A stretch of 64,000 nucleotides of DNA from Candidatus Omnitrophica bacterium UBA6253 (lineage in GTDB: Bacteria; Omnitrophota; Gorgyraeia; Gygaellales; Profunditerraquicolaceae): positions 170,540 to 234,539 of the forward strand of contig DJVP01000008.1 in NCBI GenBank assembly GCA_002441245.1, read 5' to 3'. Of the stretch, positions 11,190-63,014 are shown in pieces (position 1 is the stretch's first letter; the number at the start of each line of letters is the position of its first letter). The position numbers and the translations under genes were made by a program. The notes beneath the pieces were generated by a model. It made no database searches. It had not been told where the DNA came from and saw nothing but the letters and a program-made list of their open reading frames with translations.

Positions 11190-11310
11190 TGGTGTCAACA
11201 AATTGGCAGAAATTTATAACATGCTGTAAAAACGGCGGATTATTTTATGCCTTCTATAAGGGTTTTAAATATTTAGCATGGCGTAATCAGTGCGCGCGTA
11301 AAAAGATTGA

Positions 11311-12432
11311 TTGGAGGCAATTCAGCAGATAGCTAGTTTTGTTGAATTTTATATGCGTTCATTACAATATATCAAAGAGATTGGAAGTATTGTAAGGGGA
11401 GAAGTAAGGGCGTTATTCCCTGTATTCTCTAGGCCTGCCTGTATGCCTCCTGATTTTGTTTGTATTGGTATTACAGACGCCTGCATGCTTAGATGTAAGA
11501 TGTGCCAGAAATGGAAAGAAGATATTTTTATAAAAGACAAAACAGGTGAGCCTGCAGTTGAAGATTGGAAGCGTGCTATTTCTTCGTTGCATAAGCTTAC
11601 TGTTAAACCATTGCAAATAAATTTCGGCGGAGGAGAACCGCTTTTAAAAAAAGAGATCTTTGAGTTGGTCAGTTTTTGCAAACAAAACGGGTTAAAAACT
11701 AATATTGCTACCAATGGCTATCTTATAAACAAGGAAATGGCTAAACAAATAGCTGATTCCGGTTTGGATAGTATTATTATTTCTCTGGATAGCCTTTGCG
11801 AAGATACCCATGATTACTTGCGGGGTAAAAACGGCACATACAGGCAGGTGATGAATGCTTTGGAGTTGCTTGATAAATCCTGCGAAGGGCTTTATAAGGG
11901 TTTATGTTGTGTTATTTATCAGAAAAATATGGAAGATGTTTTAGGATTAGAGGCTTGGGCAGAAAAGGATCAGCGGATTAACTCGGTCTATTTTATGGCA
12001 GCTATGCAGCCTAATAACACAGCGCCCGATATGCGCTGGTATGAAAAAGAAGAATTCCAGGCACTCTGGCCAAAAGACCCTGTCCGGGTAGGTGCGATTA
12101 TCGATGAACTTATAAAAATAAAAAGAGGCAGGTCGAAGATCACCAACCAGATATCTCAGCTGGAGGCGTTTAAGCATTACTATAAGCAACCTGACCGCTT
12201 TGTTAAGAGTTCCCAATGTAATATGGGTGCGGCGCTGCATTTTAGCTCTTCGGGGGATATTTTTCTCTGTTACCGGTGGCAAGTTTTAGGTAATGTAAAA
12301 ACCGATGACGTTGCCTCTGTCTGGAATTCCCGCTTGGCCAAAGAAGCGCGGTTTGATATAGCAGCCTGTAAGGATAACTGTCATTTTTTGCTTAATTGTT
12401 TTTTTAAAGAAGGATACTCTTTTAAAATATAA
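11311..12432 (+). CDS. radical SAM/SPASM-type protein, tandem paralog 1 of 11
   Basis: CMLRCKMCQKW triad, FGGGEPLL, SLDS, C-terminal NCHFLLNCFF. Start uncertain: TTG at 11311, or ATG at 11353. Confidence 0.8.
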   Translation: MEAIQQIASFVEFYMRSLQYIKEIGSIVRGEVRALFPVFSRPACMPPDFVCIGITDACMLRCKMCQKWKEDIFIKDKTGEPAVEDWKRAISSLHKLTVKPLQINFGGGEPLLKKEIFELVSFCKQNGLKTNIATNGYLINKEMAKQIADSGLDSIIISLDSLCEDTHDYLRGKNGTYRQVMNALELLDKSCEGLYKGLCCVIYQKNMEDVLGLEAWAEKDQRINSVYFMAAMQPNNTAPDMRWYEKEEFQALWPKDPVRVGAIIDELIKIKRGRSKITNQISQLEAFKHYYKQPDRFVKSSQCNMGAALHFSSSGDIFLCYRWQVLGNVKTDDVASVWNSRLAKEARFDIAACKDNCHFLLNCFFKEGYSFKI

Positions 12433-12471
12433 CCGGGACGGATGCGCTATTAGGATAAGAAAGGAATCATT

Positions 12472-13518
12472 ATGCAAAGCAGCTTAGATAAAAGATTTGA
12501 TTTAAAGAATAATCCTGGTTTTTTAAAGCCAGGTTTCTGTTGTATCGGCATTGTTGATACCTGCATGTTAGAGTGTAAGATGTGCCAGAAATGGAAGGAT
12601 GATCCTGGCACAAAGGGCATTTCTCAACCGACAACAGATCAATGGAAGATTTTTATCAGCCAATTGCGTGATTTGGTAGATGAGGGTTTTGAAATTGATT
12701 TTGGCGGCGGAGAAGCATTAATGAGACCGGATCTTTTAGAGCTGGTCTCTTATGCAAAGGGTCTGGGGTTTAGAAACGCGATAGCTTCCAATGGCTACCT
12801 GATTAATGACGAGATGGCCAAAAGGATAGTAGATTCTGGTTTAGACAGCATAGTTTTATCTCTGGATAGTTTAAAACCTGAAATTCATGATAGTATGCGT
12901 GGCAAAAAAGGCGTTACCGAAAGGGTTTTTAAGGCCATTGAATACCTAAGAAAATATTCAAAAGATATACACATAGGGATATGCACAATAATTATGGAGC
13001 AAAGCTTGGACGGTATTATTGATTTGGCGGAATGGGTAAATACAAATAGGGATAAGATGAATTCTATTTTGTTTATGGCTCCCATGCAACAGAATAATAC
13101 ACCTTGCGATCTGGAATGGTTTAAGAAAGCTGAATATAATTTTATCTGGCCAAAAAACAGTAAAAAGGTTCAGGATGTCCTTGATGAACTAATCAGGCGC
13201 AGAAAACTGGGCCACTGGATAGGTGATTCTATCCCGCAGTTAGAGGCCTTTAAATTATATTTTCAGAATCCCGCTAAATTCGTAAAAAATAACCCGTGTA
13301 ATTTAGATAGAGCCGTGCATGCCAGTTCAATTGGAGATATATATTTATGCTACCGCTATGGCGTGCTTGGCAATATTAAGAATGGAGATGATCTCAGGCA
13401 GATATGGAACTCGCAGGTGGCCAGTAAAGTCAGAGGCGAAGTAAGGCAGTGCGATGATAATTGTCATTTTCTACTCAACTGTTTTTTTGAGGGTGATTAC
13501 CCTTTTGGCGTGAAATAA
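12472..13518 (+). CDS. radical SAM/SPASM-type protein, tandem paralog 2
   Basis: CMLECKMCQKW, FGGGEAL, NCHFLLNCFF. SD AAGGAA upstream. Shares an identical 23-nt stretch with paralog 1. Confidence 0.85.
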   Translation: MQSSLDKRFDLKNNPGFLKPGFCCIGIVDTCMLECKMCQKWKDDPGTKGISQPTTDQWKIFISQLRDLVDEGFEIDFGGGEALMRPDLLELVSYAKGLGFRNAIASNGYLINDEMAKRIVDSGLDSIVLSLDSLKPEIHDSMRGKKGVTERVFKAIEYLRKYSKDIHIGICTIIMEQSLDGIIDLAEWVNTNRDKMNSILFMAPMQQNNTPCDLEWFKKAEYNFIWPKNSKKVQDVLDELIRRRKLGHWIGDSIPQLEAFKLYFQNPAKFVKNNPCNLDRAVHASSIGDIYLCYRYGVLGNIKNGDDLRQIWNSQVASKVRGEVRQCDDNCHFLLNCFFEGDYPFGVK

Positions 13519-14522
13519 TGAAGGTAAAAGGGATAAGACATAAGCTTACTGTAGCAATATTGAGCGTAATTTTATTTTTTGGCACATTTGAAGTCGCGCT
13601 AAGAATTATTAAATTCCACGTAAACCAGACAAACCAGTATTTTAAATTTGCAAGTTTTTATTTTGTTCCCGATAAATCTGTACCTATAGAGCTTAAAGAC
13701 CCTTACTTATTCTGGAGTAATTATAAACATGAATATTTTCGAGGGCGGCATCATCCTTTAGTAAAACCAAAAGATACCTTTAGAATTATTTGTATGGGGG
13801 ATTCGATTACTCAGGGTTGGGCACCATATAATATTAAGTTTAACGAGACTTATCCTTATATGTTAGAAGAATTATTCCATAGTAACAAGATGAATAATCT
13901 TGAGGTTATAAATGCGGGAACCGGTGGGTATACTTCTTTTCAAGGATTGCGTTTTTTAAAGAGGGATTTATTAAATTACGATCCGGATTTATTAATTATA
14001 TGGTTTGGCATAAATGATGCAGACAATGCTATTTTATTTATCGATAAAGAACAGAAGATGTGCAATAAAACAATTAAAAGATTGGATGCTTTCTTAAGCC
14101 ACAGTAAATTTTATCAGCTTTATCAGCAGGTACTGTTTCGTCTTGCCTCTTGCAGGTGGTTTGATAAAAAAAGGGTTTCTGGGGAAGACTATTGTAATAA
14201 TCTGAGGGAGATGGCAAATCTAGCCAAGAAAAATAATATTACTCCGGTTTTTATTATTCCTTTCCTGAGATTCGGTTCCGAGGTGTTGTCGTATAAAGAA
14301 ATGAAAGATTACAAGAAATATGCAGAGATCTTCAATGAATTTTCAAATAAAGGTATTATAGTAGTAGATTTAAGCCTCCTTTTTAAAGGCAAGGAAGATC
14401 TTGATTCTTATTTTATTGATAGGTGCCATCTTGCCTTAAAAGGCAATAGGCTGGTATCTGAAGATATTTACGACATATTAACGGGCAGAGGAATTATAAG
14501 TAATACCAAGAAAGGATATTGA
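13518..14522 (+). CDS. SGNH/GDSL-family hydrolase (esterase/acyltransferase-like), N-terminal membrane anchor
   Basis: 334 aa. Block I ICMGDSITQGW, N-terminal TM helix. TAATGA overlap with the upstream gene. Confidence 0.7.
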   Translation: MKVKGIRHKLTVAILSVILFFGTFEVALRIIKFHVNQTNQYFKFASFYFVPDKSVPIELKDPYLFWSNYKHEYFRGRHHPLVKPKDTFRIICMGDSITQGWAPYNIKFNETYPYMLEELFHSNKMNNLEVINAGTGGYTSFQGLRFLKRDLLNYDPDLLIIWFGINDADNAILFIDKEQKMCNKTIKRLDAFLSHSKFYQLYQQVLFRLASCRWFDKKRVSGEDYCNNLREMANLAKKNNITPVFIIPFLRFGSEVLSYKEMKDYKKYAEIFNEFSNKGIIVVDLSLLFKGKEDLDSYFIDRCHLALKGNRLVSEDIYDILTGRGIISNTKKGY

Positions 14523-14523
14523 C

Positions 14524-15570
14524 ATGGTCGACCAACGGGAAGCCGATGAGAAAGTGGATATTTTGGGTAAAGCTAATATTTTAAAACCCGCATTCTGTTG
14601 CGTAGCTGCCACGGATTACTGTATGCTGCGCTGCAAAATGTGTAATAAATGGTCAGAGCCAATACCTAAACCGGAAGAGTTGCCGTCTATAGCAGAATGG
14701 AAGCGTTTTATAACCGGGTTCCGGGAGCTTGTTGATGAACAGTTTGAAATGGATTTTGGGGGAGGAGAAGCGCTTTCAATGCCCGGCATCCTTGAGATGG
14801 TCAGGCATGCAAAGGATTTGGGTTTTAAGACTACTATGGCGTCAAATGGCTATTTGATCAATAAGGAGATGGCTATTAAAATAGCTGATTCAGGCCTTGA
14901 TGCGGTCAGCCTTTCTTTGGATAGCCACCGTGCGCAGTTACACGATAAGATGCGCGGCGTAGAAGGCGTCTATCAGCGGGTAATGGAGGCCATAGATAAT
15001 ATATCAAAGTATTCAAAGCATACCCGTAAAGGGCTATGTTGTATTATTATGGATGAAAATATTGACGATATATTGCCTTTGGTGCAGCTTGCTGATAAGA
15101 ACCCTAAAATCGACTGGATATATTTTATGGTTGTGGTCCAACCCAATTACAGTGGTCCGTTAACCGATGATTGGCGGGATGAATATAAATATCTTTGGCC
15201 CAAGGATAAGGTAAAAACAATTGCCTTGCTTGATGAATTGATCCGGCTAAAGCAAAGTAATTCAAAGGTGAGCAACAGGGTAGAACATCTGAGGGCTTAT
15301 AAAGCCTATTTTAATAATCCGCAAAAACTGGTCAATAAAGCGCGTTGTATTGTTGGTGGCAGGGCGATCAGTATAAACTCTTATGGATTTGTGCAACTGT
15401 GCCTTTTTAAAGATTTTATTGGTAACATCCGGAAACAGGATATCCGGGATATCTGGCGCTCTCAGGATGCAGAGGTGATCAGAAAGCAGGTGGATCAGTG
15501 TAAAACCAATTGTCATTTACTTCTTAACTGTTGCTACATAGAGGATGAACCATCGCTTTATTCTTCATAA
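14524..15570 (+). CDS. radical SAM/SPASM-type protein, tandem paralog 3
   Basis: CMLRCKMCNKW, FGGGEAL, NCHLLLNCCY. Confidence 0.85.
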   Translation: MVDQREADEKVDILGKANILKPAFCCVAATDYCMLRCKMCNKWSEPIPKPEELPSIAEWKRFITGFRELVDEQFEMDFGGGEALSMPGILEMVRHAKDLGFKTTMASNGYLINKEMAIKIADSGLDAVSLSLDSHRAQLHDKMRGVEGVYQRVMEAIDNISKYSKHTRKGLCCIIMDENIDDILPLVQLADKNPKIDWIYFMVVVQPNYSGPLTDDWRDEYKYLWPKDKVKTIALLDELIRLKQSNSKVSNRVEHLRAYKAYFNNPQKLVNKARCIVGGRAISINSYGFVQLCLFKDFIGNIRKQDIRDIWRSQDAEVIRKQVDQCKTNCHLLLNCCYIEDEPSLYSS

Positions 15571-15579
15571 CCAACCATT

Positions 15580-16587
15580 ATGGATAAAGGCCGATTTTTA
15601 GAAAAACCGCGTTACTGTTGTTGGGTGCTTAATTATCGCTGCATGTTCCGGTGTAAAACCTGTTATATCTGGAATGTTAAAGATAATAAGGGTGAGGAGA
15701 CGTCTTTAGAGCAAAAAAAACAGTTTGTAAAATCTTTACGAGGATTTGTTGGGCCGGATTTCGAATTCCACTTATCGGGTGGAGAGCCCTTGTTGACCGA
15801 GGGCATAATTGAATTGATTGATTTTATTTCCTCTGAAGGGTATAAAACTAACCTGGTTACAAATGGTTTTCTTGTCAATGATGCCATGGCCAGGTCAATT
15901 GTTTCCAGCGGGCTGGGAACAATTACTTTTTCGCTTGATGGCAGGAAAGCCTCTACGCATGATTTCCTGCGCGGTGTTGATGGCAGTTATGAAAAAATAA
16001 TGCAGGCGATCGGCTATATAGACAAATGCCGTAAAAATCGGAAACCCGCCATATCCATACTTACAATTATTATGGAGCGCAATCTTAAAGAATTGTTGGA
16101 TTTGGCTGAATGGGCTAATAATGACAAGCGGCTGGAGATGATAAGTTTTCAGGCGATTACCCAGCCGTTTTGTGAGGCCACGAACAGCGATTGGTTTTTT
16201 GAAGAGAAAAACAACTTTCTTTGGCCTCAGGACGCTGCCTCAGCCGTGGCACTTATGGAGAAGTTGCGCGACTTTAAGCTTAAGGGTTATAAAATAGGCA
16301 ATCATCCCAATCACTTCTTGCATTTTAAGGGATATTTCGAGAATCCGCAGCAATTCTTAAAAAAGATAAAATGTAATCTCGGAGATTATGAGTTCCATAT
16401 AGATCCTTATGGCAAGGAATTTTTCTGTTGTTTTATGGAGCCATTCGGTAATATTAAAACCGGGAATCTGCCTGAAATTTGGCATTCTCCAGCAACTCAA
16501 GGTATACGAGAAAACGTGTATTATTGTAAGAAAAATTGCCATATTATGGTTAATTGTTTCTATGAAGATGAAAAAAGTACTACGTAA
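15580..16587 (+). CDS. radical SAM/SPASM-type protein, tandem paralog 4
   Basis: CMFRCKTCYIW, SGGEPLL, NCHIMVNCFY. Confidence 0.85.
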   Translation: MDKGRFLEKPRYCCWVLNYRCMFRCKTCYIWNVKDNKGEETSLEQKKQFVKSLRGFVGPDFEFHLSGGEPLLTEGIIELIDFISSEGYKTNLVTNGFLVNDAMARSIVSSGLGTITFSLDGRKASTHDFLRGVDGSYEKIMQAIGYIDKCRKNRKPAISILTIIMERNLKELLDLAEWANNDKRLEMISFQAITQPFCEATNSDWFFEEKNNFLWPQDAASAVALMEKLRDFKLKGYKIGNHPNHFLHFKGYFENPQQFLKKIKCNLGDYEFHIDPYGKEFFCCFMEPFGNIKTGNLPEIWHSPATQGIRENVYYCKKNCHIMVNCFYEDEKSTT

Positions 16588-17884
16588 CTTGATATTCATA
16601 TCCTTACCAAGCATTTTTATTTTTTTGCTTATATTTGAACTCTTTTTGAGAGTAGGCGGTTGGGTATATCTTTGGCAGCGCCATCCGGAAACGTATAAGA
16701 AGGCAATGAGTTACGGGCAACAAAATAAATTCACTATTTTATGTTTAGGTGATTCGTTTACCGAAGGAGCCGGCACGGACAGAAACAATAGCTATCCTAA
16801 GCAGTTGGAGAAAATATTACTTAAAAATATAACCGGAGTAAATATAAATATAATTAATGGAGGGCGAGGAGGGAATAGTTCGTCCTTACTTTTAAAGTAT
16901 TTGCCGGTCGACCTGCTCCGGTATAACCCTGACATCGTATTAATAATGATAGGTTGTAACAATGTATGGAATTTTCAAGACAGCAGCTATTTTATTATAA
17001 ATAAGAAAGGAGGATATTTAATTCAGAATTTAGATAGTTTATTAACTAATCTGCGCACGTATAAAATGTTAAAGTTAGCCTACTTTAATACTAAAGCTTT
17101 TTTAAACACCGGGCTTAAGAAATCCCATGAAGATTATAATGAATTTTATGAATTTGCAGAAGCTGTTGATAGTATGAATGCAGATAAAAGATCAAAAGCA
17201 CTTACTAAATCTGCTGTCGCCAGTAGCCAGGATGGTAATTTTGATCTGGCCTTAAATCAATTGCAAGATGCGCTGGCTATCGATGGAAACAACTATATTG
17301 CTCATATTTGTATGGGGAATCTGTGGACAGGAAAAAAGGAGTTTGAATTAGCAAGGGCATCAAGGTTGCAGGCAATCCATATGATCCATAGATGGAATCA
17401 ATTTTTGGTTACAAGTATGATTGCGCAAATTGACCGTGAAACAGAAATGGATATGGTTAACAAAAAAGAGGTATTAGACGAGTTGGCAGTAATAAAAAAA
17501 GCGGTAGAGGTTTCTCATAAAACCAATACCGGGGATAACGCTATTGCATTAATAGAAGCAAAAATTAATTCGATAAAAGACAGATCTGTTATTCAGAAAA
17601 TTATAGAGTATGATTTAAGCCGGGCAATAAAGATAGCCAGGAATAGCGGGGCGCAAGTTGTTTTAGAAACCTATCCTTTCCGGAGTTTTATAAATATTTT
17701 CCGTGAGATAAGCGAAAGGTTCAGCGTTCCCTTAGTGGATAACTATGCAGTATTTAAGAAAGAGCAATTGTCGCAGTATCTTTTTGTTCCGGATGGACAT
17801 TGTAACGCGAAAGGTTACGGAATAATAGCCGAAAACACATATAAGACATTAATTAAATATAACCTTTTGCCCGGCAATAGATAA
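16562..17884 (+). CDS. SGNH/GDSL-family hydrolase with TPR-like helical insert
   Basis: LCLGDSFTEGAG block I after an N-terminal TM helix. TPR-like helices in the middle (ALNQLQDALAIDGNNYIAHICMGNLW). Start placed at the ATG for MKMKKVL. The ORF-track start at 16409 would overlap the upstream gene. Confidence 0.65.
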   Translation: MKMKKVLRNLIFISLPSIFIFLLIFELFLRVGGWVYLWQRHPETYKKAMSYGQQNKFTILCLGDSFTEGAGTDRNNSYPKQLEKILLKNITGVNINIINGGRGGNSSSLLLKYLPVDLLRYNPDIVLIMIGCNNVWNFQDSSYFIINKKGGYLIQNLDSLLTNLRTYKMLKLAYFNTKAFLNTGLKKSHEDYNEFYEFAEAVDSMNADKRSKALTKSAVASSQDGNFDLALNQLQDALAIDGNNYIAHICMGNLWTGKKEFELARASRLQAIHMIHRWNQFLVTSMIAQIDRETEMDMVNKKEVLDELAVIKKAVEVSHKTNTGDNAIALIEAKINSIKDRSVIQKIIEYDLSRAIKIARNSGAQVVLETYPFRSFINIFREISERFSVPLVDNYAVFKKEQLSQYLFVPDGHCNAKGYGIIAENTYKTLIKYNLLPGNR

Positions 17885-17901
17885 TTAATTTGCGATTTTA
17901 C

Positions 17902-19179
17902 ATGAACATAAAGAAAACACTGCACAGAATAATATTTATATCTATACCGAGCATTTTGGTTACGCTTGTCGTTCTTGAAATAGGTTTGAGATCAGCGGGG
18001 AATTTGTATTGCAGTAATTATATTGGATCCGTACCGGGCAATCTCAAGGAAAATAAGCTCAGCATACTTTGTCTCGGAGATTCATTTACAGTCGGGGCGG
18101 GGGCATCGACCAGGAATAGTTATCCAAGGCAGTTAGAGCGTTTATTGCGCGAGAATATAGGCAGGGATATAAAAGTGATCAACGCCGGACGCATGGGGAA
18201 CACCTCATCCTTGCTCTTAAAAAATTTTGAGAAAGATATCGCCTTATACAGACCGAAGATAGTAATAGTAATGATAGGATGTAACAACTCCTGGAATTTT
18301 GAGGATAGCAGTTATTTCAAGTTATACAAAGAAAAAGTAGGGTGTTTTGAGAAAATAGATGGAATATTGAGTCGCCTAAGAATATACAAACTGATAAAAA
18401 TAGGTTACCTTGGTTTTAAAAATAGTAAAATTAAAGAACCGGGGATAGTCCGGGATAATATTAGTAATGAATCTTTAAGGCTGTCAGCGCTTGGAGCTGA
18501 GTTATTTATGGAAGGCAGGTTTGATCCGGCCGAGGATAAGCTTAAGGAGGCGTTGATATCGGATAAAAATAATTATATTGCTCATTTGTGGTTGGCGCAT
18601 ATATATAACGCCCGGTCAGAATTTAAGGAAGGCAGGGAAGAATTGTGGAAGGCAATCAGGACTATAGGCGAATGGAACGACGAATTAATTTATGACGTGA
18701 TCTGCCGTATTCCCGAGCAAAATGATTTCAGGATTATTGAAAAAGAGTTGAGCGAAATTAAGCGATATATTGAAGCTAGGTATTCTAAAGATAGTGGTAA
18801 GAGAGCGAGCCTGGTAAGATTAATAGATGCGAAGCTGGATTTCTCAGAAGATAAGCAAATACCTCGGAGGGTATTAGAATATGATTTGGGGCAGATAGTC
18901 AGTCTTGCCAAAAGTAAAGGAATCATCCTTATTTTGCAAACATATCCTCATGATGGGTCATCGCTATATAATGTTTGCCAAAGAATAAGCGGTTTATTCA
19001 ATATGCCACTGGTAGATAATTTTTCTGCATTTAAGGAAATAGAGAAAAACAGTAACATAAATGATTTTTTTGCACCTGATAAGCATTGCAACGATAACGG
19101 CTATAGAATAATAGCTGAAAATACTTATGACACATTATGCGCTCGCAATCTTCTCTCGAATGTAGAGAGGCCTAATTAA
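17902..19179 (+). CDS. SGNH/GDSL-family hydrolase with TPR-like insert (paralog of the 16562 gene)
   Basis: LCLGDSFTVGAG, same architecture as the 16562 gene. Start placed at the ATG for MNIKK; a TTG at 17890 is the alternative. Confidence 0.65.
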   Translation: MNIKKTLHRIIFISIPSILVTLVVLEIGLRSAGNLYCSNYIGSVPGNLKENKLSILCLGDSFTVGAGASTRNSYPRQLERLLRENIGRDIKVINAGRMGNTSSLLLKNFEKDIALYRPKIVIVMIGCNNSWNFEDSSYFKLYKEKVGCFEKIDGILSRLRIYKLIKIGYLGFKNSKIKEPGIVRDNISNESLRLSALGAELFMEGRFDPAEDKLKEALISDKNNYIAHLWLAHIYNARSEFKEGREELWKAIRTIGEWNDELIYDVICRIPEQNDFRIIEKELSEIKRYIEARYSKDSGKRASLVRLIDAKLDFSEDKQIPRRVLEYDLGQIVSLAKSKGIILILQTYPHDGSSLYNVCQRISGLFNMPLVDNFSAFKEIEKNSNINDFFAPDKHCNDNGYRIIAENTYDTLCARNLLSNVERPN

Positions 19180-19250
19180 GGTGGAATAAGCAGTATATTA
19201 TATCCGATTATTTTTATGCAGCTGGTTTTGTAATACGGGAGGAGGATAGG

Positions 19251-20249: not shown

Positions 20250-20312
20250 TCATCCAGGGTTTAATTAATATGGGATTTTATATGCATGATATTTATAACT
20301 TGAGAGGATGGA

Positions 20313-21362
20313 ATGCAGAATAACCTGAACGATAATAATTTACCGGCTTTTTGCCTTTTGGTAGTATCAAAGAATTGTAACTTTCATTGTAAGATGTGTA
20401 ATATGTGGAAAAACAAGAATCGCCAGATAGATAGAAAAGAACTCACAATAGAAGAGATAAAGGGGTTTGTCGATGACCTTAAGAATGTGACTACTGAACC
20501 AATTTTTATACACCTTATTGGCGGAGAGGCGCTGCTGCGCCCTGATCTTACAGAGATTATTGCCTATATCCGCGAACAAGGGTTTAACAGTTCGATTACC
20601 ACTAATGGGTATTATATTGATGAAGGGATGGCTAAAAAGCTGGTTAACTCCCGGCTTACCGGAATTTTTATTTCACTAGATGGATTTAAAGAGGAGACTC
20701 ACGATTATTTACGCGGGGTAAAAGGAAGCTATCAGCATGTCATGGATGCAATAGAGTTCTTGGATAAGCACCGTGGCGCTGATAAGAAAAACAGACTGAG
20801 TATCGGCATTACCATGACTATGATGGAAAAAAACCTGGATGAAATTATAGATCTTGTGGAATGGGCCAATACCAATGAAAAGCTCAATGATGTATTTTTA
20901 AATGCCTGCCTTCAGCCATTTGATTGCGATGATCAGAAAAGAGAATGGTTTAAGGAAAGCAGACACAGTGAGGTATGGCCGCAGGACCCTGGCAAGATTA
21001 AAAACATCCTTGAAAAGCTGGCGGTACTTAAAGAAAAAGGCTATAAAATTTGTAATCCTCCGGAACAATTACGCTTAATAAAAGAATATTTTACTAATCC
21101 TTACCGTTTTATCCATGATCAAAAAGTAAAATGTCCCCGCGGAGACCTGGCGCCTGAAGTAAATGCCTATGGCGATATTAATATGTGTTTCTGCATGGAG
21201 CCGGTAGGCAATATCCGTAAAAACAAATTCTCCGAAGTTTGGTTTTCGGAAGGCATGATTAGAGCGCGGCAGGAAATTAAGAAATGTAAGAAAGACTGCG
21301 ATATAGTCGTTAATTGTTTTTATAAAATAGAAAATATTATAGATCCAGTAAAATCAGAATAA
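20313..21362 (+). CDS. radical SAM/SPASM-type protein, tandem paralog 6
   Basis: CNFHCKMCNMW, IGGEALL, DCDIVVNCFY. Confidence 0.85.
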   Translation: MQNNLNDNNLPAFCLLVVSKNCNFHCKMCNMWKNKNRQIDRKELTIEEIKGFVDDLKNVTTEPIFIHLIGGEALLRPDLTEIIAYIREQGFNSSITTNGYYIDEGMAKKLVNSRLTGIFISLDGFKEETHDYLRGVKGSYQHVMDAIEFLDKHRGADKKNRLSIGITMTMMEKNLDEIIDLVEWANTNEKLNDVFLNACLQPFDCDDQKREWFKESRHSEVWPQDPGKIKNILEKLAVLKEKGYKICNPPEQLRLIKEYFTNPYRFIHDQKVKCPRGDLAPEVNAYGDINMCFCMEPVGNIRKNKFSEVWFSEGMIRARQEIKKCKKDCDIVVNCFYKIENIIDPVKSE

Positions 21363-23017
21363 TGAAAATAAAGCTTATTCGTTTACCAACTTTCTTCCAG
21401 AGCTGGGATATCAATTCATCAGAGCTCAATTCAAGCCTTCTGCCTCCCCTGGGTCCGGCCCTGATCACTGGATATTTATCGAGACGCGGGTTTGAAATCG
21501 AACAGGATGATTTGAATATCAGGATATTCTTCGAACACCGCTATAATGGTTTTTTATTTGACCAGAAACCGTTTTTTGACCAGGCTCGGATAGTTGATTA
21601 CTGTAAGGGCAAGCAGTTTGATCCCGGCCTTGATGCTATTTTCCAGCAACTTGAGGAAAAATGCCCGGTAAAAGGTTATGAAGTTATTCTTTTATCAATA
21701 CAGGAAAGCCTGCGGAATAGATCTAATGTGCTTTTTGCCTGTGCCTACGCGCAATACCTTAAAACTAAATATCAGCCGTTTATTATGCTAGGCGGTTTTG
21801 GGGTAGCAGTGAGGCTGATGTATTTAGAGTATGATTTTCCCTGCATAGACTTTTATGTAATAGGGGCAGGAGAAAAATTACTGGAGACTGTTCTGAAGGC
21901 AAAAAAAGAAGGGCGCTTACTTTTATCGCTTGACGGTGTTTACTATGAACGTAATAACCGGGTCTTAAGCTCCGATTACCGAAAAATAGAAAAACCGGTC
22001 TTTGCCGGTTTGCCTATTGAATATTACCGTTATCGCGGGATATACTCTGAATATTGTTCTGATGTAAAGGATATCATTGATGAATTTCATCATTCGCAAA
22101 CATTAGTGATGCCATTCAGCCTTATCAAGGGCTGTCCCCATAAATGCATTTTTTGTTCAGAGTCAAATGGTAAGCTTGATTTTATTATGGATCATGATGA
22201 GGCTGCGGTCGCTTTGAATGAATTGCAAAAGGCATATAACCCCGCTGGATATTTCTTTCTTGACAATGAAATTAATGTTAACCAGAAATACGCGCTTAAC
22301 TTGTGTAATTCGATTATAAATAAGGGGCTTAAGATCCAATGGAGTGATTGCGCCAGGGCAGATTTTACTACCAAGGATATTTTGTCCAAAATGAAAGAAT
22401 CGGGGTGTATTAGGCTTATCTTTGGCATTGAGACGGGGAGTAGAAAATTACTTGAATATGTTAAAAAAGGAGTTTCTTTGGAGCAGCTGGAGTCTGCTAT
22501 CCGTTGGGCAAATGAATTAGGGATTTGGACCGGAATAGAAATAATATGCGGACTTCCGCATGAGTCAGATCAGGATATCCGGGAAACGACTGATTTTCTA
22601 AAGCGCAATAAAGATTATATCAACCGGTTTTATTACAATACATTTGACCTGCGTGGTGGAAGTCTGTTGTTTCATGAGCCGCGTAAGTATGGGATTGAAA
22701 ATATATTTGATGTCAATGAAGTAGTCTCTTTCGCAGAACGTAAATACAGCAAGAATTTTACGCAGTTTGGGTTTGATGAGATTGGCGGGCTGCGCTGGGA
22801 AGAAAAGAAAAAACAGACCCTTTCCTCTTACGATAAAGTTGTTGGCGCTATGGGAGGGTATGAGGGATTCCCTACTCTTGAAGAGGAACATTTCCTTTTC
22901 TTTCTATATAAGAAGTATGGATATGATCTGGAGAAAATCCAAGTGATATTTCGCAGGGTAGCTCAGGAAAAAGGTAAATACAGGGATAGCTTGCGTAGGA
23001 CAGGAGCTTTGATATAG
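21362..23017 (+). CDS. class B (B12-binding-like N-terminal domain) radical SAM protein
   Basis: 551 aa. The N-terminus has a PPLGPALITGYL...EIEQDD Rossmann-like pattern. rSAM motif IKGCPHKCIFCSES. Confidence 0.7.
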   Translation: MKIKLIRLPTFFQSWDINSSELNSSLLPPLGPALITGYLSRRGFEIEQDDLNIRIFFEHRYNGFLFDQKPFFDQARIVDYCKGKQFDPGLDAIFQQLEEKCPVKGYEVILLSIQESLRNRSNVLFACAYAQYLKTKYQPFIMLGGFGVAVRLMYLEYDFPCIDFYVIGAGEKLLETVLKAKKEGRLLLSLDGVYYERNNRVLSSDYRKIEKPVFAGLPIEYYRYRGIYSEYCSDVKDIIDEFHHSQTLVMPFSLIKGCPHKCIFCSESNGKLDFIMDHDEAAVALNELQKAYNPAGYFFLDNEINVNQKYALNLCNSIINKGLKIQWSDCARADFTTKDILSKMKESGCIRLIFGIETGSRKLLEYVKKGVSLEQLESAIRWANELGIWTGIEIICGLPHESDQDIRETTDFLKRNKDYINRFYYNTFDLRGGSLLFHEPRKYGIENIFDVNEVVSFAERKYSKNFTQFGFDEIGGLRWEEKKKQTLSSYDKVVGAMGGYEGFPTLEEEHFLFFLYKKYGYDLEKIQVIFRRVAQEKGKYRDSLRRTGALI

Positions 23018-23020
23018 CCG

Positions 23021-23992
23021 ATGGGTAAGGATAAGATGGAACTAAGTTTAAGCCTTAATAATACCTGTAATCTTCGCTGCCGGATGTGCCGGATATGGAA
23101 TTCCGGGGAAGAAGAAAATAAATTAACCCTTGAAAAATGCCAGGGCGTTATTGATGAATTAGGGGCATTTGAAGTCAAGGGGGTGCGGCTTAGCGGTGGA
23201 GATCCGCTTTTGGTGCCCTGGGTTTTGGATTTGGCGGGCTATATCAATAAGAAAAAATACCATAGTTGTGCTACGACTAACGGTTCTATGATCAATGAGG
23301 CATATGCCTTGAAAATTGTTTCTTCGGGGCTCTCTAATTTGAATATTTCTTTGGATTCATACACACCCGGTATACATGATACAATACGCGGTTTGCCGGG
23401 CGGCAGGGACCGGATTATGGATGCAATTGGCCACATAGCTAAGAAAGGGTCCGGCCCCGAGATAGGCATTAATACCGTTATCTCAAATTTTAATCTCGAT
23501 GACCTGCTTATTTTGGCGGATGCCATTCAAGATGATAAAAGAATAAATCATCTTTATTTTATGGCGATCATGCAGCCTTTTAATACCCCGCCAGATAAAG
23601 GGTGGTTTTTGAAAGAAGATTTTCGCGGCCTCTGGCCGGAAGATAAAGATAAGGTTAGATACGTAATCAATGAATTAATTGCCCGCAAGAAGTCAGGCTA
23701 TAAAATAAATAACAGTTTTGCGCAATTGCGGGCATTCGTTGACTATTTTCTTGACCCGCTTCACTTTGCCAGGAAAAATACCTGTAATCTCGGCAAGGAA
23801 GTTATGGAGGTCAATCAAATGGGGGATGTTTTTTTGTGCCATTTATACGAAAGCATAGGTAATGTTTTTCAAGATTCACTGTCAAATATCTGGGGCTCAG
23901 AAAAAGCGCGCCTGGTGAGGGACAAAATAAACCGCTGTAGCCAGAACTGCAATCTTTTGATCAATTGTTATTTTGAGGAGGAAGATGTATAG
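23021..23992 (+). CDS. radical SAM/SPASM-type protein, tandem paralog 7
   Basis: CNLRCRMCRIW, SGGDPLL, NCNLLINCYF. Confidence 0.85.
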   Translation: MGKDKMELSLSLNNTCNLRCRMCRIWNSGEEENKLTLEKCQGVIDELGAFEVKGVRLSGGDPLLVPWVLDLAGYINKKKYHSCATTNGSMINEAYALKIVSSGLSNLNISLDSYTPGIHDTIRGLPGGRDRIMDAIGHIAKKGSGPEIGINTVISNFNLDDLLILADAIQDDKRINHLYFMAIMQPFNTPPDKGWFLKEDFRGLWPEDKDKVRYVINELIARKKSGYKINNSFAQLRAFVDYFLDPLHFARKNTCNLGKEVMEVNQMGDVFLCHLYESIGNVFQDSLSNIWGSEKARLVRDKINRCSQNCNLLINCYFEEEDV

Positions 23993-24950
23993 GCCGCGGA
24001 TTTGTTCGATTGAATTGTTCAGGAGATGCTGCCTTCGCTGCCGCATGTGTAATATGTGGAAGGTCAAGGAAGATGATAAGGGCCTTGATAAGGATACGCT
24101 GGAGCATTTAGCTTGCGGGCTTCTCTCAGTTATGAATGGGGAAAAAGAGGTTGTTTTAAGTGGCGGCGAACCATTATTGCATTCAGATATTGTTGAAATT
24201 ATCCGCCAATTCAGCCTTAAGGGTTTTAAGGTGGGGATGGCTTCTAATGGCGTTTTAATTGATCAAGCCAAGGCTGGGGAATTGGCAGGTGCGGGTTTAA
24301 AGAATATCCAGCTTTCATTAGATAGCGTTAATAAGGAAACCCATGATTTCTTAAGGGGGGTGCCCGGCGCATATGAAAAAGTATTGCAGGCAGCTGGATA
24401 CCTGAAAGTCCACAAGGGTAAGGTTTCTGTCTGTGCTCAGACGGTGATCTCAGGAAAGAATTTAGAAGAGCTCGTTGATACTATAGAATTTATTAAGGAT
24501 GATGGCAGGTTTGATGCCATATCATTTATGGCGGTGACCACTCCCTTTTTTGCGACTATCGATAATGACTGGCAGGAGAATAGTGAGTTTTCTTTTTTAT
24601 GGCCGTGCGATTCAAAGCGGGTGGATAAAATTATTGACCAGATTATTGCTTTAAAAGCCAAAGGTTATCCAATCGCAAATCCAGTAGCTCAATTTGAATT
24701 ATTCAGAAGTTATTTTCACCAGCCGCGCAAGCGCAGGCAAATGGCGCGCTGCCAGCTGGGTGATTATGTTGTAAGCATTGACCCGTCTGGTGAAGTAAGG
24801 ATATGTTGTTTTATGGATTCTGTGGGTAATATTTACGTAAACGACATTACTCTTTTACTGGATAACCCGCAAGTAGAGAAAATGCGGCAGGATATGCGTG
24901 CCTGTAGCAAGGTATGCAACACTCTCGTAAACTGTTTTTTTAAAGCATGA
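23985..24950 (+). CDS. radical SAM/SPASM-type protein, tandem paralog 8
   Basis: CLRCRMCNMW, SGGEPLL, VCNTLVNCFF. Start placed at the ATG (MYRPR), which is preceded by SD GAGGAGG; the ORF-track start at 23973 is a TTG. Confidence 0.85.
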   Translation: MYRPRICSIELFRRCCLRCRMCNMWKVKEDDKGLDKDTLEHLACGLLSVMNGEKEVVLSGGEPLLHSDIVEIIRQFSLKGFKVGMASNGVLIDQAKAGELAGAGLKNIQLSLDSVNKETHDFLRGVPGAYEKVLQAAGYLKVHKGKVSVCAQTVISGKNLEELVDTIEFIKDDGRFDAISFMAVTTPFFATIDNDWQENSEFSFLWPCDSKRVDKIIDQIIALKAKGYPIANPVAQFELFRSYFHQPRKRRQMARCQLGDYVVSIDPSGEVRICCFMDSVGNIYVNDITLLLDNPQVEKMRQDMRACSKVCNTLVNCFFKA

Positions 24951-24970
24951 AAATTTAACCGAGAACCTCT

Positions 24971-25966
24971 ATGAATGAAAAAAGCGCCACCATACAGCAT
25001 TGTGATCTTATTGTCACAGAAAACTGCTTTTTGCGTTGTAAAATGTGTCACATCTGGAAACATAGAAAAGATGATGAGACCATCCCTTTTAAAACATATA
25101 TTGAATTCTTAAGCGCACTTAAGGAGCTTTCGGGTAAAAATACGCAAATTCAGTTTGTCGGCGGAGAACCACTGCTTAAAAAGGGGATACTGGATTTAAT
25201 CAGTTGTGCCAGTAGCCATGGATTTCCTACTACCATGACCACTAATGGATGTTTAATCGACCGTGAGATGGCTGATGGGATAATTGCTTCAGGTCTTAAT
25301 GCTATTGGTTTTTCGCTGGAAAGCCTGCATGGGCAAAGGCATGATTTCTTAAGGGGTGTGCCCGGTACCTTTAAAAAAGTCATGGATGCAATTAGCTATT
25401 TTCAGGATACATCTGCTCCAAAAGATATTTTTATCAGTACTATAATCAACGGAACAAACCTGGAAGATATTATTGCTATCGCCGAGTGGGTAAATAAAAA
25501 TCCGCGCTTAAGTTTTGTATACTTTCAATCAGTAATGCAGCCGTTCGCTATGGCCGAGGATGATTCCTGGCATCAAAGGGAAGAGGTAAGATTTCTCTGG
25601 CCCGATACAACTGCGGTGCATAAAGTGCTTGATAAGCTGATTGCCCTCCAGAAGCAGGGATATAAAATCGCCAATCCCCCGGGTCAATTCAACGCCTTTA
25701 AGAATTATTTCAGTGATCCCCGGAAGTTCATAAAAAAAATAAAATGCAATCTTGGACATAATGCCTTTAGTGTGTTGCCTAATGGAGATGTGTTTCTTTG
25801 TTTTTCCTTGCCTCCGATAGGAAATATCATGGTTGATAAGATAGGTGCTATTTGGGTTTCAGAAAAGGCCCGCAAGGCAAGGGAACAAATCTCCAGTTGC
25901 CAGAAAAACTGTAAATTGATGATTAATTGTTTTTTTGAAAACGAAGAAAGCAAAATAATTAAATAA
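24971..25966 (+). CDS. radical SAM/SPASM-type protein, tandem paralog 9
   Basis: CFLRCKMCHIW, VGGEPLL, NCKLMINCFF. Confidence 0.85.
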   Translation: MNEKSATIQHCDLIVTENCFLRCKMCHIWKHRKDDETIPFKTYIEFLSALKELSGKNTQIQFVGGEPLLKKGILDLISCASSHGFPTTMTTNGCLIDREMADGIIASGLNAIGFSLESLHGQRHDFLRGVPGTFKKVMDAISYFQDTSAPKDIFISTIINGTNLEDIIAIAEWVNKNPRLSFVYFQSVMQPFAMAEDDSWHQREEVRFLWPDTTAVHKVLDKLIALQKQGYKIANPPGQFNAFKNYFSDPRKFIKKIKCNLGHNAFSVLPNGDVFLCFSLPPIGNIMVDKIGAIWVSEKARKAREQISSCQKNCKLMINCFFENEESKIIK

Positions 25967-25991
25967 ATTAATGTCCGCAGAAGGAATAAAA

Positions 25992-27362
25992 ATGAAAAAC
26001 CTGAGAGCCTTAAAAGAAGCCAAGCCATTTGACCCCAGCTGGCCACGCTACAGCTGTGCCTTAATAAATAGGAGTTGTGTATTACCGTGCAAGATGTGTT
26101 TGAACTGGAAAAACCAGGTGGATGGCCCGGGTGATAAATTTAAATATTTTAAGAAATACATTGAAAGCCTGGCTGATTTTGTAGAGTACCCCATGGAAAT
26201 CAATATTATGGGCGGAGAGCCGCTGATGGAAGATTGGATATTTGATTTAATAGAAGTGATTGAGGAGAGTGGGTTTACGTCTATTATTTCCACAAACGCC
26301 TATTTAATAGATGATAAAAAGGCAAAACAGATTATGAATTCCTCTCTGCGGGTGCTGGGAATTTCGTTGGATAGCATTGATAGTAAAATCCACAATTTCT
26401 ATAGGGGCAAACCGGACGTTACGCAGCATACTTTTGAAGCCCTGCGCCTATTGGAAAAACATAAGCTTTCAAGCAGGGCCCCGGTTGTGGATATCCTTAC
26501 GCTTTTTATGAAGAAAAATCTCGATGGAATAATCGAGCTTGTTAAATGGGTTGATAAAAACAAGTTTGTAAGCAATGTTGCCTTTGCTGCTTTATTAAAT
26601 TCAATTCTTCCTTCCGGGACAGAAAATTGGTTTAATAGGGATGAGTATAAAGATATTTGGCCTGATGATGCTAAAAAAGTACATGAGGTGATAGATGAAG
26701 TGATTAACATGAAGAAGAATGGCAGCCATATTGTTAATCCGGTTTCGCAGCTTGAGGCCTTCAAAGAATATTATAAAAACCCTATAGAATTTATTTATTC
26801 GACGCCATACAGCATAAGGGATTTTGTTATAGAGATGGAGCCTACCGGAGAGCTTTATCTGAGCGGATACCGCTTGGGTAGCATTAATGATCCTGAGACC
26901 TTGAAAGAAAAATGGCATTCAAAGGAAGCGGATAAAATACGGGAGACAGTGGCTAAATATGGTTCAGAGAGTTCCCGCTCGGCATTAATCAATTTTATTT
27001 GTGTTTTTCAGGAAGCCGGCAACTCTGAGTCAGGTTGTTCTACGACTGAGAAAGATTTTGTTGATTATCAAAGCCGCAAGGGTTTTAATTGTCAGAAGCA
27101 GGGTGATTACCGGCAAGCCGTGGAACATTTTAAAAAGGCTTTAGAAAAAAGACCCGATAGTCCTGATTTGCATATAGGAGTTGCATATAACTCTTTAAAA
27201 TTAGAGGACTATAAGACTGCAACGCAGGAATACGAGAAGGCATTTCAGCTAAATCACAAATTTAGAGAAGAGTTTATTTATAATTATAATGATGCGGTTA
27301 GGGGTTTGTCAGAGATGCTGCCTGATAATGGTAAATTGTTCCGCAAAGAGACGGGAAAATAA
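25992..27362 (+). CDS. radical SAM/SPASM-type protein, tandem paralog 10, with C-terminal TPR-like extension
   Basis: CVLPCKMCLNW and MGGEPL. About 110 C-terminal residues are TPR-like (QKQGDYRQAVEHFKKALEKRPDSPDLHIGVAYNSLKLEDYKTATQEYEKAFQLN). Start placed at the ATG after SD AAGGA; an ATG at 25971 is the alternative. Confidence 0.8.
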   Translation: MKNLRALKEAKPFDPSWPRYSCALINRSCVLPCKMCLNWKNQVDGPGDKFKYFKKYIESLADFVEYPMEINIMGGEPLMEDWIFDLIEVIEESGFTSIISTNAYLIDDKKAKQIMNSSLRVLGISLDSIDSKIHNFYRGKPDVTQHTFEALRLLEKHKLSSRAPVVDILTLFMKKNLDGIIELVKWVDKNKFVSNVAFAALLNSILPSGTENWFNRDEYKDIWPDDAKKVHEVIDEVINMKKNGSHIVNPVSQLEAFKEYYKNPIEFIYSTPYSIRDFVIEMEPTGELYLSGYRLGSINDPETLKEKWHSKEADKIRETVAKYGSESSRSALINFICVFQEAGNSESGCSTTEKDFVDYQSRKGFNCQKQGDYRQAVEHFKKALEKRPDSPDLHIGVAYNSLKLEDYKTATQEYEKAFQLNHKFREEFIYNYNDAVRGLSEMLPDNGKLFRKETGK

Positions 27363-27365
27363 ATA

Positions 27366-28340
27366 ATGGATATCAGGAAGCCGGTATTTTGTTCAATAGA
27401 GGTTTTGTATAGTTGCATATTAAAATGTAAGATGTGCCATATGTGGAAGAATACCCGGACTGCCGAGGAGATGTCTATCGCAGATTGGAAAAAATTTATT
27501 GTTGAGCTAAAAGAATTTATCGATACCGCCACCCCTATAAATATAACAGGAGGGGAGCCTTTGCTTAAAGAAGATGTTTTGGATTTAGTGCGCTTTGGCG
27601 TTAAGAGTGGTTTTGGCTCTGTTTCAATGACTACTAATGGTTTCTTAATTGATACGTCTATAGCTTCTGCCATGGCTGATTCAGGATTGAGCATGGTTTC
27701 TATGTCGTTGGATAGCTTAGATCAGGGCGTACATGATAACATCAGAGGTTTAAAAGGTGCCTGTAAGAAGGTAATGGAGGCTTTTGAGTATTTCAGGAAT
27801 TATCCCGGAAACCTTAAAAAATTAGGCGTACAAACCATTATTATGGGGCCTAATCTGGGAGGAATTTTAGATTTGGTCAAATGGGCGCATAACAGAAACA
27901 TATCTATTTATTTTATGGCTATTGCGCAGCCATTATGTTTGAGTTTGCCGGGCAACTGGCATTTAGAATCAGAATATAGTTTTCTCTGGCCAAATGAGAA
28001 AACAAGGTTATTTGAGGTTATAGACACTCTTGTAAAATTTAAAGAGGATGGTGTTGATATTGGTAATTCAGTAGCTCAGCTAAAAGCTTTTAAGACTTAT
28101 TTTACGGACCCCAATGATTTTGTAAAGAAACACAGGCAATGCAGGATGGGAGATGGAATGCTTAAAGTCGATCCTTGGGGTAATGTGTCGCTATGCGCTG
28201 AAAAAGGGGCTATTGGAAATGTACGCGTTGAAAAAATAGGTGATCTCTGGTTTTCTAAAAAAGCGGCTGATATCAGGGAGTCGATTAAAACCTGTAAGAC
28301 AAACTGCCCTCAACTGGTCAATTGTTTCTTTGAAGATTAA
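27366..28340 (+). CDS. radical SAM/SPASM-type protein, tandem paralog 11
   Basis: CILKCKMCHMW, TGGEPLL, NCPQLVNCFF. Confidence 0.85.
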   Translation: MDIRKPVFCSIEVLYSCILKCKMCHMWKNTRTAEEMSIADWKKFIVELKEFIDTATPINITGGEPLLKEDVLDLVRFGVKSGFGSVSMTTNGFLIDTSIASAMADSGLSMVSMSLDSLDQGVHDNIRGLKGACKKVMEAFEYFRNYPGNLKKLGVQTIIMGPNLGGILDLVKWAHNRNISIYFMAIAQPLCLSLPGNWHLESEYSFLWPNEKTRLFEVIDTLVKFKEDGVDIGNSVAQLKAFKTYFTDPNDFVKKHRQCRMGDGMLKVDPWGNVSLCAEKGAIGNVRVEKIGDLWFSKKAADIRESIKTCKTNCPQLVNCFFED

Positions 28341-50424: not shown

Positions 50425-50425
50425 C

Positions 50426-50617: not shown

Positions 50618-50864
50618 ATTTTCTCCGTAGCTTGCATTATGATAAACGTTTCATTGGTATTATAAAATACTTACCATTACAAATCAAGCTGTATCAATTT
50701 CTTCATGCAAACTTGAAATTATCAAGAAACTTCTCGATAATTCTGAAGCGATAGCTTATAATAGTAGATACTATTTATACAGTTTGATCGCAAGGTATGT
50801 TTGTATAATGGTGGAAGTTATAGCGTAAATATTAACAATTAATTAGGCGTAACATATTGAAATT

Positions 50865-63006: not shown

Positions 63007-63014
63007 GGGCATCC

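Follow-up and report, generated by a model that had tools for sequence, protein, structure and literature searches.

A tandem array of eleven paralogous radical SAM enzymes within a glycan-export locus of Omnitrophota, with a proposed role in glycan tailoring

A 64,000-nucleotide stretch of DNA from Candidatus Omnitrophica bacterium UBA6253 (contig DJVP01000008.1), referred to here as the window, carries between positions 11311 and 28340 a tandem array of eleven paralogous genes for radical S-adenosylmethionine (rSAM) enzymes, which we call P1-P11. The eleven paralogs are one discrete rSAM family and a new subfamily within a known superfamily, and they lie in a block of genes of the kind associated with a glycan exported by an ATP-binding cassette (ABC) transporter. 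With moderate confidence, we favor a role for the P paralogs in the cytoplasm, where they would tailor, by radical chemistry, a sugar polymer linked to a lipid or to a nucleotide. An earlier note on this DNA had already described eleven paralogous open reading frames (ORFs) of 323-463 aa, which the ORF list, Pfam, and a profile of P2 orthologs bear out. The same note had preferred a tailored glycan or other non-peptide substrate to a classical cluster for a ribosomally synthesized and posttranslationally modified peptide (RiPP). This preference is supported by recurrent glycan synteny, by the absence from the window of a RiPP recognition element (RRE), a leader peptidase, and a peptidase-containing ABC transporter (PCAT), and by a shared protein module.

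Fifteen ORFs fill positions 11311-28340: the eleven P genes, all on the + strand and numbered by the start positions below, three GDSL/SGNH proteins, and one 551-aa rSAM enzyme. "TPR" stands for tetratricopeptide repeat.

11311..12432, + strand: P1, rSAM/SPASM-type; Pfam Radical_SAM 81 bits and SPASM 26.5 bits; annotated start TTG
12472..13518, + strand: P2; Pfam Radical_SAM and SPASM; AlphaFold2 model with a mean confidence (pLDDT) of 91, top fold match BlsE with a template modeling (TM) score of 0.68
13518..14522, + strand: SGNH/GDSL protein 1; Pfam Lipase_GDSL_2 71 bits; N-terminal transmembrane-like segment at aa 10-28
14524..15570, + strand: P3; Pfam; orthologs 66-95% identical
15580..16587, + strand: P4; Pfam; orthologs across the fetched loci
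16409..17884, + strand: SGNH/GDSL protein 2; Pfam; transmembrane-anchored, with a helical insert; probable start near 16562
17890..19179, + strand: SGNH/GDSL protein 3; Pfam; transmembrane-anchored, with a TPR-like insert
19251..20249, + strand: P5; Pfam and the P2-ortholog profile
20313..21362, + strand: P6; Pfam; orthologs across the fetched loci
21362..23017, + strand: 551-aa rSAM with an N-terminal Rossmann-like extension; Radical_SAM 67.8 bits; B12-binding 13.9 bits, nonsignificant
23021..23992, + strand: P7; Pfam Radical_SAM and SPASM
23973..24950, + strand: P8; Pfam Radical_SAM and SPASM
24971..25966, + strand: P9; Pfam Radical_SAM and SPASM
25971..27362, + strand: P10; Radical_SAM with CxxxCxxC intact, no SPASM match; C-terminal TPR at about 27066-27245
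27366..28340, + strand: P11; Pfam Radical_SAM and SPASM

Because P1 orthologs are 339-359 aa long, the true P1 start is probably the ATG at 11353. Genes in the array overlap or are separated by at most 71 nt, within the 120 nt given previously. When the array gaps were scanned, no intergenic ORF of at least 20 aa was found between paralogs, and a promoter/terminator scan of the array turned up no intergenic terminators and promoter-like sites at the level expected from shuffled sequence. The earlier statement that small ORFs are missing holds between the paralogs and fails directly upstream of P1, where a conserved 47-aa ORF is found at 11189-11332. As for the genes that interrupt the array, the three SGNH hydrolases were correctly named: they match Lipase_GDSL_2 at 58.9-71.1 bits against a cut-off of 32.9, and all have an N-terminal transmembrane anchor. 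In two of the three (13518-19179), the SGNH domain is itself interrupted by a helical, TPR-like insert of about 200 aa. The assignment of the fourth interrupter (21362-23017) as a class B rSAM enzyme is not supported: the layout of the gene product is class-B-like, but its match to the B12-binding family (PF02310) is below threshold (13.9 bits, E 0.048, against a cut-off of 32.1). The tandem array is real, and it is part of a larger block in which 14 further rSAM genes lie on both sides.

All eleven paralogs match Radical_SAM (PF04055) at 53-90 bits against a cut-off of 29.5, and ten of them match SPASM (PF13186) at 22.2-35.2 bits against a cut-off of 21.5, with no match for P10. An alignment shows CxxxCxxC-xx-W, GG[EAD][PA]L, SLDS, and H[DN]..RG blocks, of which the three CxxxCxxC cysteines and the GG[EAD] block are invariant in all eleven. 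A profile of P2 orthologs, made from foreign sequences only, scored the other ten paralogs at 220-451 bits and the remaining rSAM enzymes of the window at no more than 68 bits, and it is this separation that sets the eleven apart as one discrete family. The C-terminal domain of ten paralogs has five conserved cysteines (C-x11-G-x4-C ... C-x3-C-x5-C) and does not match the full seven-cysteine SPASM motif (CX9-15GX4C...CX2CX5CX3C...C) with its two auxiliary clusters. The five-cysteine pattern and the β-hairpin/helix C-terminal domain in the P2 model are compatible with a twitch domain, which binds one auxiliary [4Fe-4S] cluster (BtrN and MoaA are examples). The label SPASM/twitch-type, previously given to all eleven together with a C-terminal cysteine motif, appears to be a fair one for ten. 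P10, which lacks a SPASM domain, has lost four of the five C-terminal cysteines and kept one, while retaining an intact rSAM motif and carrying a TPR tail; judging from these features, it may have a scaffolding or non-redox role. No transmembrane segment or signal peptide was predicted in any of the eleven paralogs, and the first cluster cysteine, at residue 16-58, comes too early for an RRE to fit in front of it.

No NCBIfam equivalog reached its cut-off in the ten paralogs scanned (P1-P9 and P11). The top scores were about 75-101 bits (GeoRSP, AhbD, NirJ) against cut-offs of 400-650 bits; across the named rSAM/SPASM equivalogs (GeoRSP, AhbD, NirJ1/2, MftC, PqqE, BlsE, Tes, and others), the cut-offs range from about 170 to 850 bits. 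Sequence searches of the PDB gave generic rSAM-core matches only. In terms of structure, BlsE is the nearest fold to the P2 model, followed by SkfB, MoaA, DesII, anSME, and SuiB, with sequence identities of no more than 19%. Identities as heme or tetrapyrrole enzymes (AhbD/NirJ), GeoRSP, MoaA, or anSME were considered and rejected, with scores far under the cut-offs or no match listed and with a gene context that does not fit.

Pairwise protein identity among the eleven is 26-46%, and blastn matches between them are short and motif-sized only. The orthologs of P1-P4 and P6 are 60-95% identical between genomes, and the ratio of nonsynonymous to synonymous substitution rates (dN/dS), a check proposed in the earlier note, is 0.04-0.15 in ortholog pairs, indicating purifying selection. 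Taken together, these values mean that each paralog is an old, separately maintained gene. Given their age and the purifying selection on each of them, it is plausible that the paralogs are diversified in substrate, as had been suggested. The exact P2 protein is also present on 13 independently assembled contigs. An assembly or annotation artifact (collapsed or chimeric repeats, pseudogenes), which had been raised as a concern, found no evidence in its favor and can be dismissed for practical purposes; it is ruled out by these 13 contigs, by the lack of DNA similarity among the paralogs beyond motif-sized matches, and by the strong purifying selection on orthologs in many genomes.

The genes on either side of the array supply the glycan context. 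The main features are listed here, with module X denoting the shared module described below and GT-C, GT1, GT2, and GT4 denoting glycosyltransferase types.

449..1339, + strand: WecA/MraY-type polyprenyl-phosphate sugar-1-phosphate transferase (GT4); Pfam Glycos_transf_4 106 bits; best NCBIfam match WecA, below cut-off
1780..2559, + strand: Wzm-type ABC-2 permease; Pfam, NCBIfam
2561..5395, + strand: Wzt/TagH-type ABC ATPase, 944 aa; ATPase at aa 31-232, then three copies of module X (about 3272-3946, 3998-4657, and 4721-5392)
5404..7743, + strand: 779-aa rSAM/SPASM enzyme; N-terminal module X at about 5464-6123
7740..9926, + strand: 728-aa rSAM enzyme; Radical_SAM 68.7 bits; B12-binding 28.2 bits against a cut-off of 32.1; C-terminal module X at about 9252-9899
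9939..11189, + strand: 416-aa rSAM/SPASM enzyme of a family separate from P1-P11
28240..30171, + strand: GT-C (PMT_2), directly after the array
36615..38933, + strand: GT-C (PMT_2) with a C-terminal module X at about 38295-38930; Pfam, module search

PF00953, PF01061, and PF00005 all score above threshold in the window, and the best NCBIfam names for the GT4, the permease, and the ATPase are WecA, Wzm/KpsM, and TagH/Wzt, respectively, all below their equivalog cut-offs. A polyprenyl-phosphate sugar-1-phosphate transferase, an ABC-2 permease, and a Wzt/TagH-type ATPase are thus found together, which is the combination expected for an ABC-transporter-dependent glycan. Further genes encode two GT1 and two GT2 enzymes (one ArnC-like), a nucleoside diphosphate-sugar epimerase/dehydratase, four GT-C (PMT_2) proteins in all, and a SAM methyltransferase. 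Of the 48 window ORFs of at least 150 aa, 47 are on the + strand, and the 64-kb window is approximately a single co-directional block. Radical_SAM is matched by 25 of the 48, including the 14 outside P1-P11 that flank the array, and B12-binding exceeds its Pfam cut-off in seven window rSAM genes (starts include 30234, 40976, 48030, 53849, 61492, and 62913). Pfam detected no PqqD/RRE, leader peptidase, or PCAT exporter among the 48 window ORFs.

Module X is an all-β domain of about 210 aa that was found by blastp among the window proteins. Six copies are present in the window: three in the extension of the Wzt-type ATPase, one each at the N-terminus of the 779-aa rSAM enzyme and the C-terminus of the 728-aa rSAM enzyme, and one at the C-terminus of the GT-C that starts at 36615. 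The fold is a galactose-mutarotase-like supersandwich. A profile of the six copies identified 180 module X domains in the fetched loci, at 1-9 copies per Wzt-type protein, 1-3 per 779-type rSAM, and 1-2 per 728-type rSAM, as well as in one 416-type rSAM and in the GT-C. A word-indexed search with the module X alignment yielded 5 proteins; we used instead an exhaustive search of 1.84 billion representative proteins, which gave 590 matches at E of 0.001 or below. The partner domains in 51 sampled module X proteins were ABC_tran (13), Radical_SAM (10, 8 of them with SPASM), PMT_2 (8), and Sulfatase (1). One isolated module scanned against Pfam matched no family, and Wzt_C was not matched in the Wzt-type ATPase, in which no Pfam family covers the C-terminal 700 aa. 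By its position, module X appears to take the place of the canonical carbohydrate-binding domain Wzt_C. Nothing else in the data ties the rSAM block to the exported glycan as strongly as this occurrence of one sugar-binding fold on the exporter ATPase, the rSAM enzymes, and a GT-C.

The same association recurs in other genomes. All named homologs of P2 are from Candidatus Omnitrophota/Omnitrophica, and a scan of GTDB species representatives with the P2-ortholog query returned 56 loci, mostly from Omnitrophota metagenome-assembled genomes (MAGs), with a few labeled Planctomycetota, Margulisiibacteriota, Deltaproteobacteria, or archaea. When the loci were mapped onto the window proteins, the recurrent gene order was a WecA-like GT4, a Glf-like FAD oxidoreductase, Wzm, and Wzt, followed by P-family genes, the 779-type rSAM/SPASM, the 728-type rSAM, the 416-type rSAM/SPASM, SGNH, and GT-C. 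A 1.26-Mb Omnitrophota contig has the same layout with at least 10 P genes. Glycan-type neighbors (WecA-like GT4, Wzm, Wzt, GT-C, SGNH) are present in 30 of the 36 fetched loci that have at least three P genes, and two remote loci (L053 and L055 in our numbering, with 8 and 14 P genes) have a GT2 and a polysaccharide deacetylase of carbohydrate esterase family 4 (CE4). In these two, the tandem P genes (L055 88-15254 and L053 21-9344) lie in MAGs labeled Methanosarcinales and archaeon, beside the GT2, the CE4 deacetylase, and B12-type rSAM genes; either lateral transfer or mis-binning would account for the labels. The fetched loci contain 0-14 P copies each and 267 P-family ORFs in total, mostly of 325-375 aa. 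They include tandem fusions of two P proteins (P-P) and fusions to a TPR (TPR-P), and none is fused to a glycosyltransferase or to module X. The P-P fusions are about 670-730 aa long and the TPR is N-terminal in the TPR-P fusions (L009, L015, L016, L020, L023, and L055; L033, L035, L045, and L060); these fusions suggest that the paralogs work as complexes. One fusion (L023 1380-3389) lacks CxxxCxxC in its first half and resembles a pseudo-rSAM. The identity of P2 orthologs is mosaic relative to their neighbors (75% against 86-95% in L028, 89% against 81% in L006), a pattern that suggests recombination inside the locus, as in serotype-variable glycan loci.

How might the P paralogs work within such a locus? 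The eleven make up part of one uncharacterized rSAM subfamily of soluble cytoplasmic proteins, each with an abbreviated five-cysteine SPASM/twitch-like C-terminal domain, and their genes belong to an extended co-directional operon that would serve to make an envelope glycan exported by an ABC transporter. As we picture it, the chain would be started on polyprenyl phosphate by the WecA-type enzyme, extended by the GT1 and GT2 enzymes, and exported by Wzm/Wzt; outside the cytoplasm, GT-C glycosylation and the acyl chemistry of the membrane-anchored SGNH proteins would follow in the periplasm. Each paralog would use a 5′-deoxyadenosyl radical to abstract hydrogen at one particular sugar position, either on the lipid-linked polymer or on nucleotide-sugar building blocks, and the outcome could be oxidation, epimerization, deoxygenation, or C-C bond formation. 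Twitch/SPASM enzymes that act on sugars are known to catalyze alcohol oxidation (BtrN), epimerization (NeoN), dehydration (AprD4), and decarboxylation (BlsE). The B12-type rSAM enzymes of the window would add C-methyl groups, and the mutarotase-fold module common to Wzt, two rSAM enzymes, and a GT-C would bind the same glycan during tailoring and during export. We infer both the chemistry and the glycan substrate of the module-less P family. More tentatively, the locus may be a production line in which at least a dozen rSAM enzymes rewrite C-H positions of an envelope polysaccharide on its lipid carrier, guided by the module, so that only finished polymer is exported. The P-family arrays, the module-X-bearing SPASM enzymes, and the B12-type enzymes would then take part during or after polymerization, with epimerization, oxidation, deoxygenation, and C-methylation as their steps.

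Several observations weigh against glycan tailoring by the P paralogs. P1-P11 do not have module X, and what ties them to the glycan is their place in the operon and its conserved synteny. Neither a ligase nor a final acceptor was identified within the window. The RiPP maturases SkfB, CteB, and SuiB, as well as anSME, score nearly as well as BlsE, and SPASM enzymes are mostly peptide-modifying. Finally, P1 has a small companion gene that is always directly upstream of its ortholog.

11189..11332, + strand: ORF47, a 47-aa basic, aromatic-rich protein; TAATG overlap with the stop codon of the 416-aa rSAM gene; Shine-Dalgarno sequence GGAAAGGAG about 7 nt upstream of the start; overlaps the annotated TTG start of P1

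A rival reading is that the array matures a RiPP or a peptide-derived cofactor. P1, and perhaps the other paralogs in sequence, would cross-link or otherwise modify the ORF47 product or a precursor from another part of the genome, and the result might then be glycosylated and exported. ORF47 is a real gene: it is intact and stand-alone in 14 other loci, falls into 31 database clusters of 40-57 aa that are mostly annotated as hypothetical, and has a dN/dS of about 0.1, indicating purifying selection. Its tie to P1 holds whatever lies before it, as in L047, where the upstream gene is an FAD oxidoreductase and not the 416-aa rSAM and the P1 ortholog is still downstream. The consensus is MAETNWQKFVKHCKxGGxFYAIxRGxKYIAWRNxCxRxGIDWRKFSR. 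ORF47 itself contains 11 residues that are aromatic and 10 that are basic, and its Cys35 is conserved; such an aromatic and basic composition with a cysteine is typical of rSAM cross-linking substrates. Set against this, ORF47 is present in only 8 of the 36 arrays with at least three paralogs, and the tight packing of genes in arrays that do not have it (e.g., L044) leaves no space for a hidden peptide gene. Its absence from the other 28 arrays led us to reject ORF47 as a family-wide substrate. Its conservation is even from end to end, with no leader/core split visible, and weak ORF47-like motifs (E 1e-4 to 5e-3) form the N-terminus of larger rSAM or module X proteins in L017, L029, L032, and L033, a placement more in keeping with a subunit or domain than with a substrate. 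With no RRE, peptidase, or PCAT in the window as well, a RiPP pathway seems unlikely. To judge from these sequence features, ORF47 is a P1-specific partner, more likely a small subunit than a substrate, and it could be a peptide substrate for P1 only.

Two other kinds of substrate can be set beside the glycan. The paralogs might modify the polyprenyl carrier or the alkyl chain of a membrane lipid or glycolipid, by analogy with Tes and GDGT-MAS. Both of these enzymes are among the generic matches, and the locus is built on lipid-linked intermediates (GT4, the ArnC-like GT2, GT-C). The matches, however, do not extend beyond the rSAM core, have 17-24% identity, and fall far under the family cut-offs; the window has no genes for fatty-acid, isoprenoid, or ether-lipid biosynthesis; and the fold of module X is carbohydrate-binding, not lipid-binding. 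A lipid had been offered earlier as a second non-peptide option, and with no specific support for it, we regard lipid tailoring as quite unlikely. Alternatively, the paralogs could act like anSME on secreted, surface, or giant proteins that are then O-glycosylated by PMT_2 enzymes, with TPRs recruiting the substrates. The PMT_2 family does include protein O-mannosyltransferases, TPRs are fused to P10 and to P-family members elsewhere, and anSME is a good fold match. Protein modification nevertheless strikes us as very improbable, given that no candidate target protein or sulfatase is found in the window, that anSME is absent among the NCBIfam matches listed, and that the Wzm/Wzt and WecA context indicates a lipid-linked polymer. 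Tailoring of a lipid-linked or nucleotide-linked sugar polymer is the reading that we retain.

The remainder of the window holds several further observations. A tRNA-Leu(GAG) gene (152-234) at the left edge of the locus was the only hit in Rfam and tRNA scans of the window, and the 440-nt gap between the GT4 and wzm genes (1340-1779) has no Rfam match. Outside the P family, the rSAM genes include three more SPASM types (starts at 5404, 9939, and 33568) and a pair at 59400 and 60445. The 779-aa (5404-7743) and 567-aa (33568-35271) rSAM/SPASM enzymes have in common a second unannotated domain upstream of the rSAM core, which spans aa 284-429 of the former and aa 72-222 of the latter at 41% identity. 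Between 42535 and 48009 are a DUF362 (Fe-S) gene, a transmembrane-anchored 320-aa protein without a family, and three tandem Peptidase_U32-family paralogs that match the N-terminal part of the profile only. Relatives of U32 act as O2-independent hydroxylases, and by analogy these three may perform an anaerobic hydroxylation of the product. The sole large minus-strand gene (49573-50424) is PP-loop-like, with an SGGTDS motif and a weak match to DUF7411, and the noncoding 440-nt gap beside it (50425-50864) divides the block into two transcription units. Near the right edge is a possibly frameshifted or truncated gene, a 310-aa B12-binding ORF (62913-63845) that covers only the first 60 or so positions of the rSAM domain and shares 94 nt with the gene before it.

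If glycan tailoring by the P family is correct, radical chemistry is used on a large scale for a bacterial cell-surface polymer, at a locus conserved across many Omnitrophota. Unusual sugars (C-methylated, epimerized, deoxy, or keto) would be predicted in the envelopes of these ultra-small, host-dependent bacteria. Enzymologists would gain a large family of small soluble rSAM enzymes with presumably distinct site specificities, and a new glycan-binding module without a Pfam family would couple tailoring to export. For genome miners, there would also be a warning: in Omnitrophota and similar MAGs, an rSAM/SPASM cluster that has been flagged as a RiPP cluster may instead be a glycan locus.

Full-text literature searches found no published description of this rSAM family, locus, or module X, and comparison must be made with systems that resemble it in part. 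High rSAM density in an uncultured phylum related to the Planctomycetes-Verrucomicrobia-Chlamydiae group has been reported before: groundwater Elusimicrobia have rSAM-rich clusters (up to 13) around NifHDK paralogs, for which a tetrapyrrole-type cofactor was proposed (bioRxiv 10.1101/765248). The locus described here differs in having no Nif-like genes and in its glycan export context. Two recent Omnitrophota preprints deal with giant proteins and with a hyper-variable polysaccharide cassette of the Wzc/ligase type, not with this locus, and that cassette is a different system.

Among characterized proteins, rSAM/SPASM enzymes are known mainly as peptide maturases; those that act on sugars are few and work singly, in antibiotic pathways. 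The maturases SkfB, CteB, SuiB, AlbA, PqqE, and MftC have the Radical_SAM plus SPASM architecture of the P family and are among its best matches, and the pairing of P1 with a small ORF adds to the likeness. The P family departs from them in its five cysteines rather than seven or eight, in having no RRE, leader/core precursor, peptidase, or peptide exporter, and in that most arrays have no peptide gene. In polytheonamide biosynthesis (PoyB/C/D), many rSAM steps, including epimerization and B12-dependent C-methylation, edit one linear ribosomal peptide. The analogy to this system is one of concept only, the context here being a polysaccharide pathway instead of a ribosomal peptide; the production line suggested above, if it exists, would be its counterpart for a polysaccharide. 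BlsE, BtrN, and DesII are closer in kind: they have the rSAM core and a C-terminal β-hairpin/helix Fe-S domain, over which BtrN aligns, and they act on carbohydrate (non-peptide) substrates and, like the paralogs, have no RRE. AprD4 and NeoN are further sugar-modifying twitch/SPASM rSAM enzymes of antibiotic pathways. BlsE, BtrN, and DesII are, however, encoded by single genes in small-molecule clusters, compared with eleven tandem paralogs here (up to 14 elsewhere) in an envelope-glycan export locus, and identity to them is at most 19% with no family cut-off reached. The export machinery finds its counterpart in the E. coli O9a and Klebsiella galactan systems, which likewise combine a WecA-like initiating transferase with a Wzm permease and with an ATPase of the Wzt type that has a long C-terminal extension. 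Here, in contrast, the extension consists of 3-9 copies of a mutarotase-like module that is also found on rSAM and GT-C proteins, and more than half of the locus genes encode rSAM enzymes. The kinds of system represented, rSAM sugar tailoring and ABC-dependent glycan assembly, are therefore known ones; what is new is an unnamed rSAM subfamily and a domain without a Pfam family.

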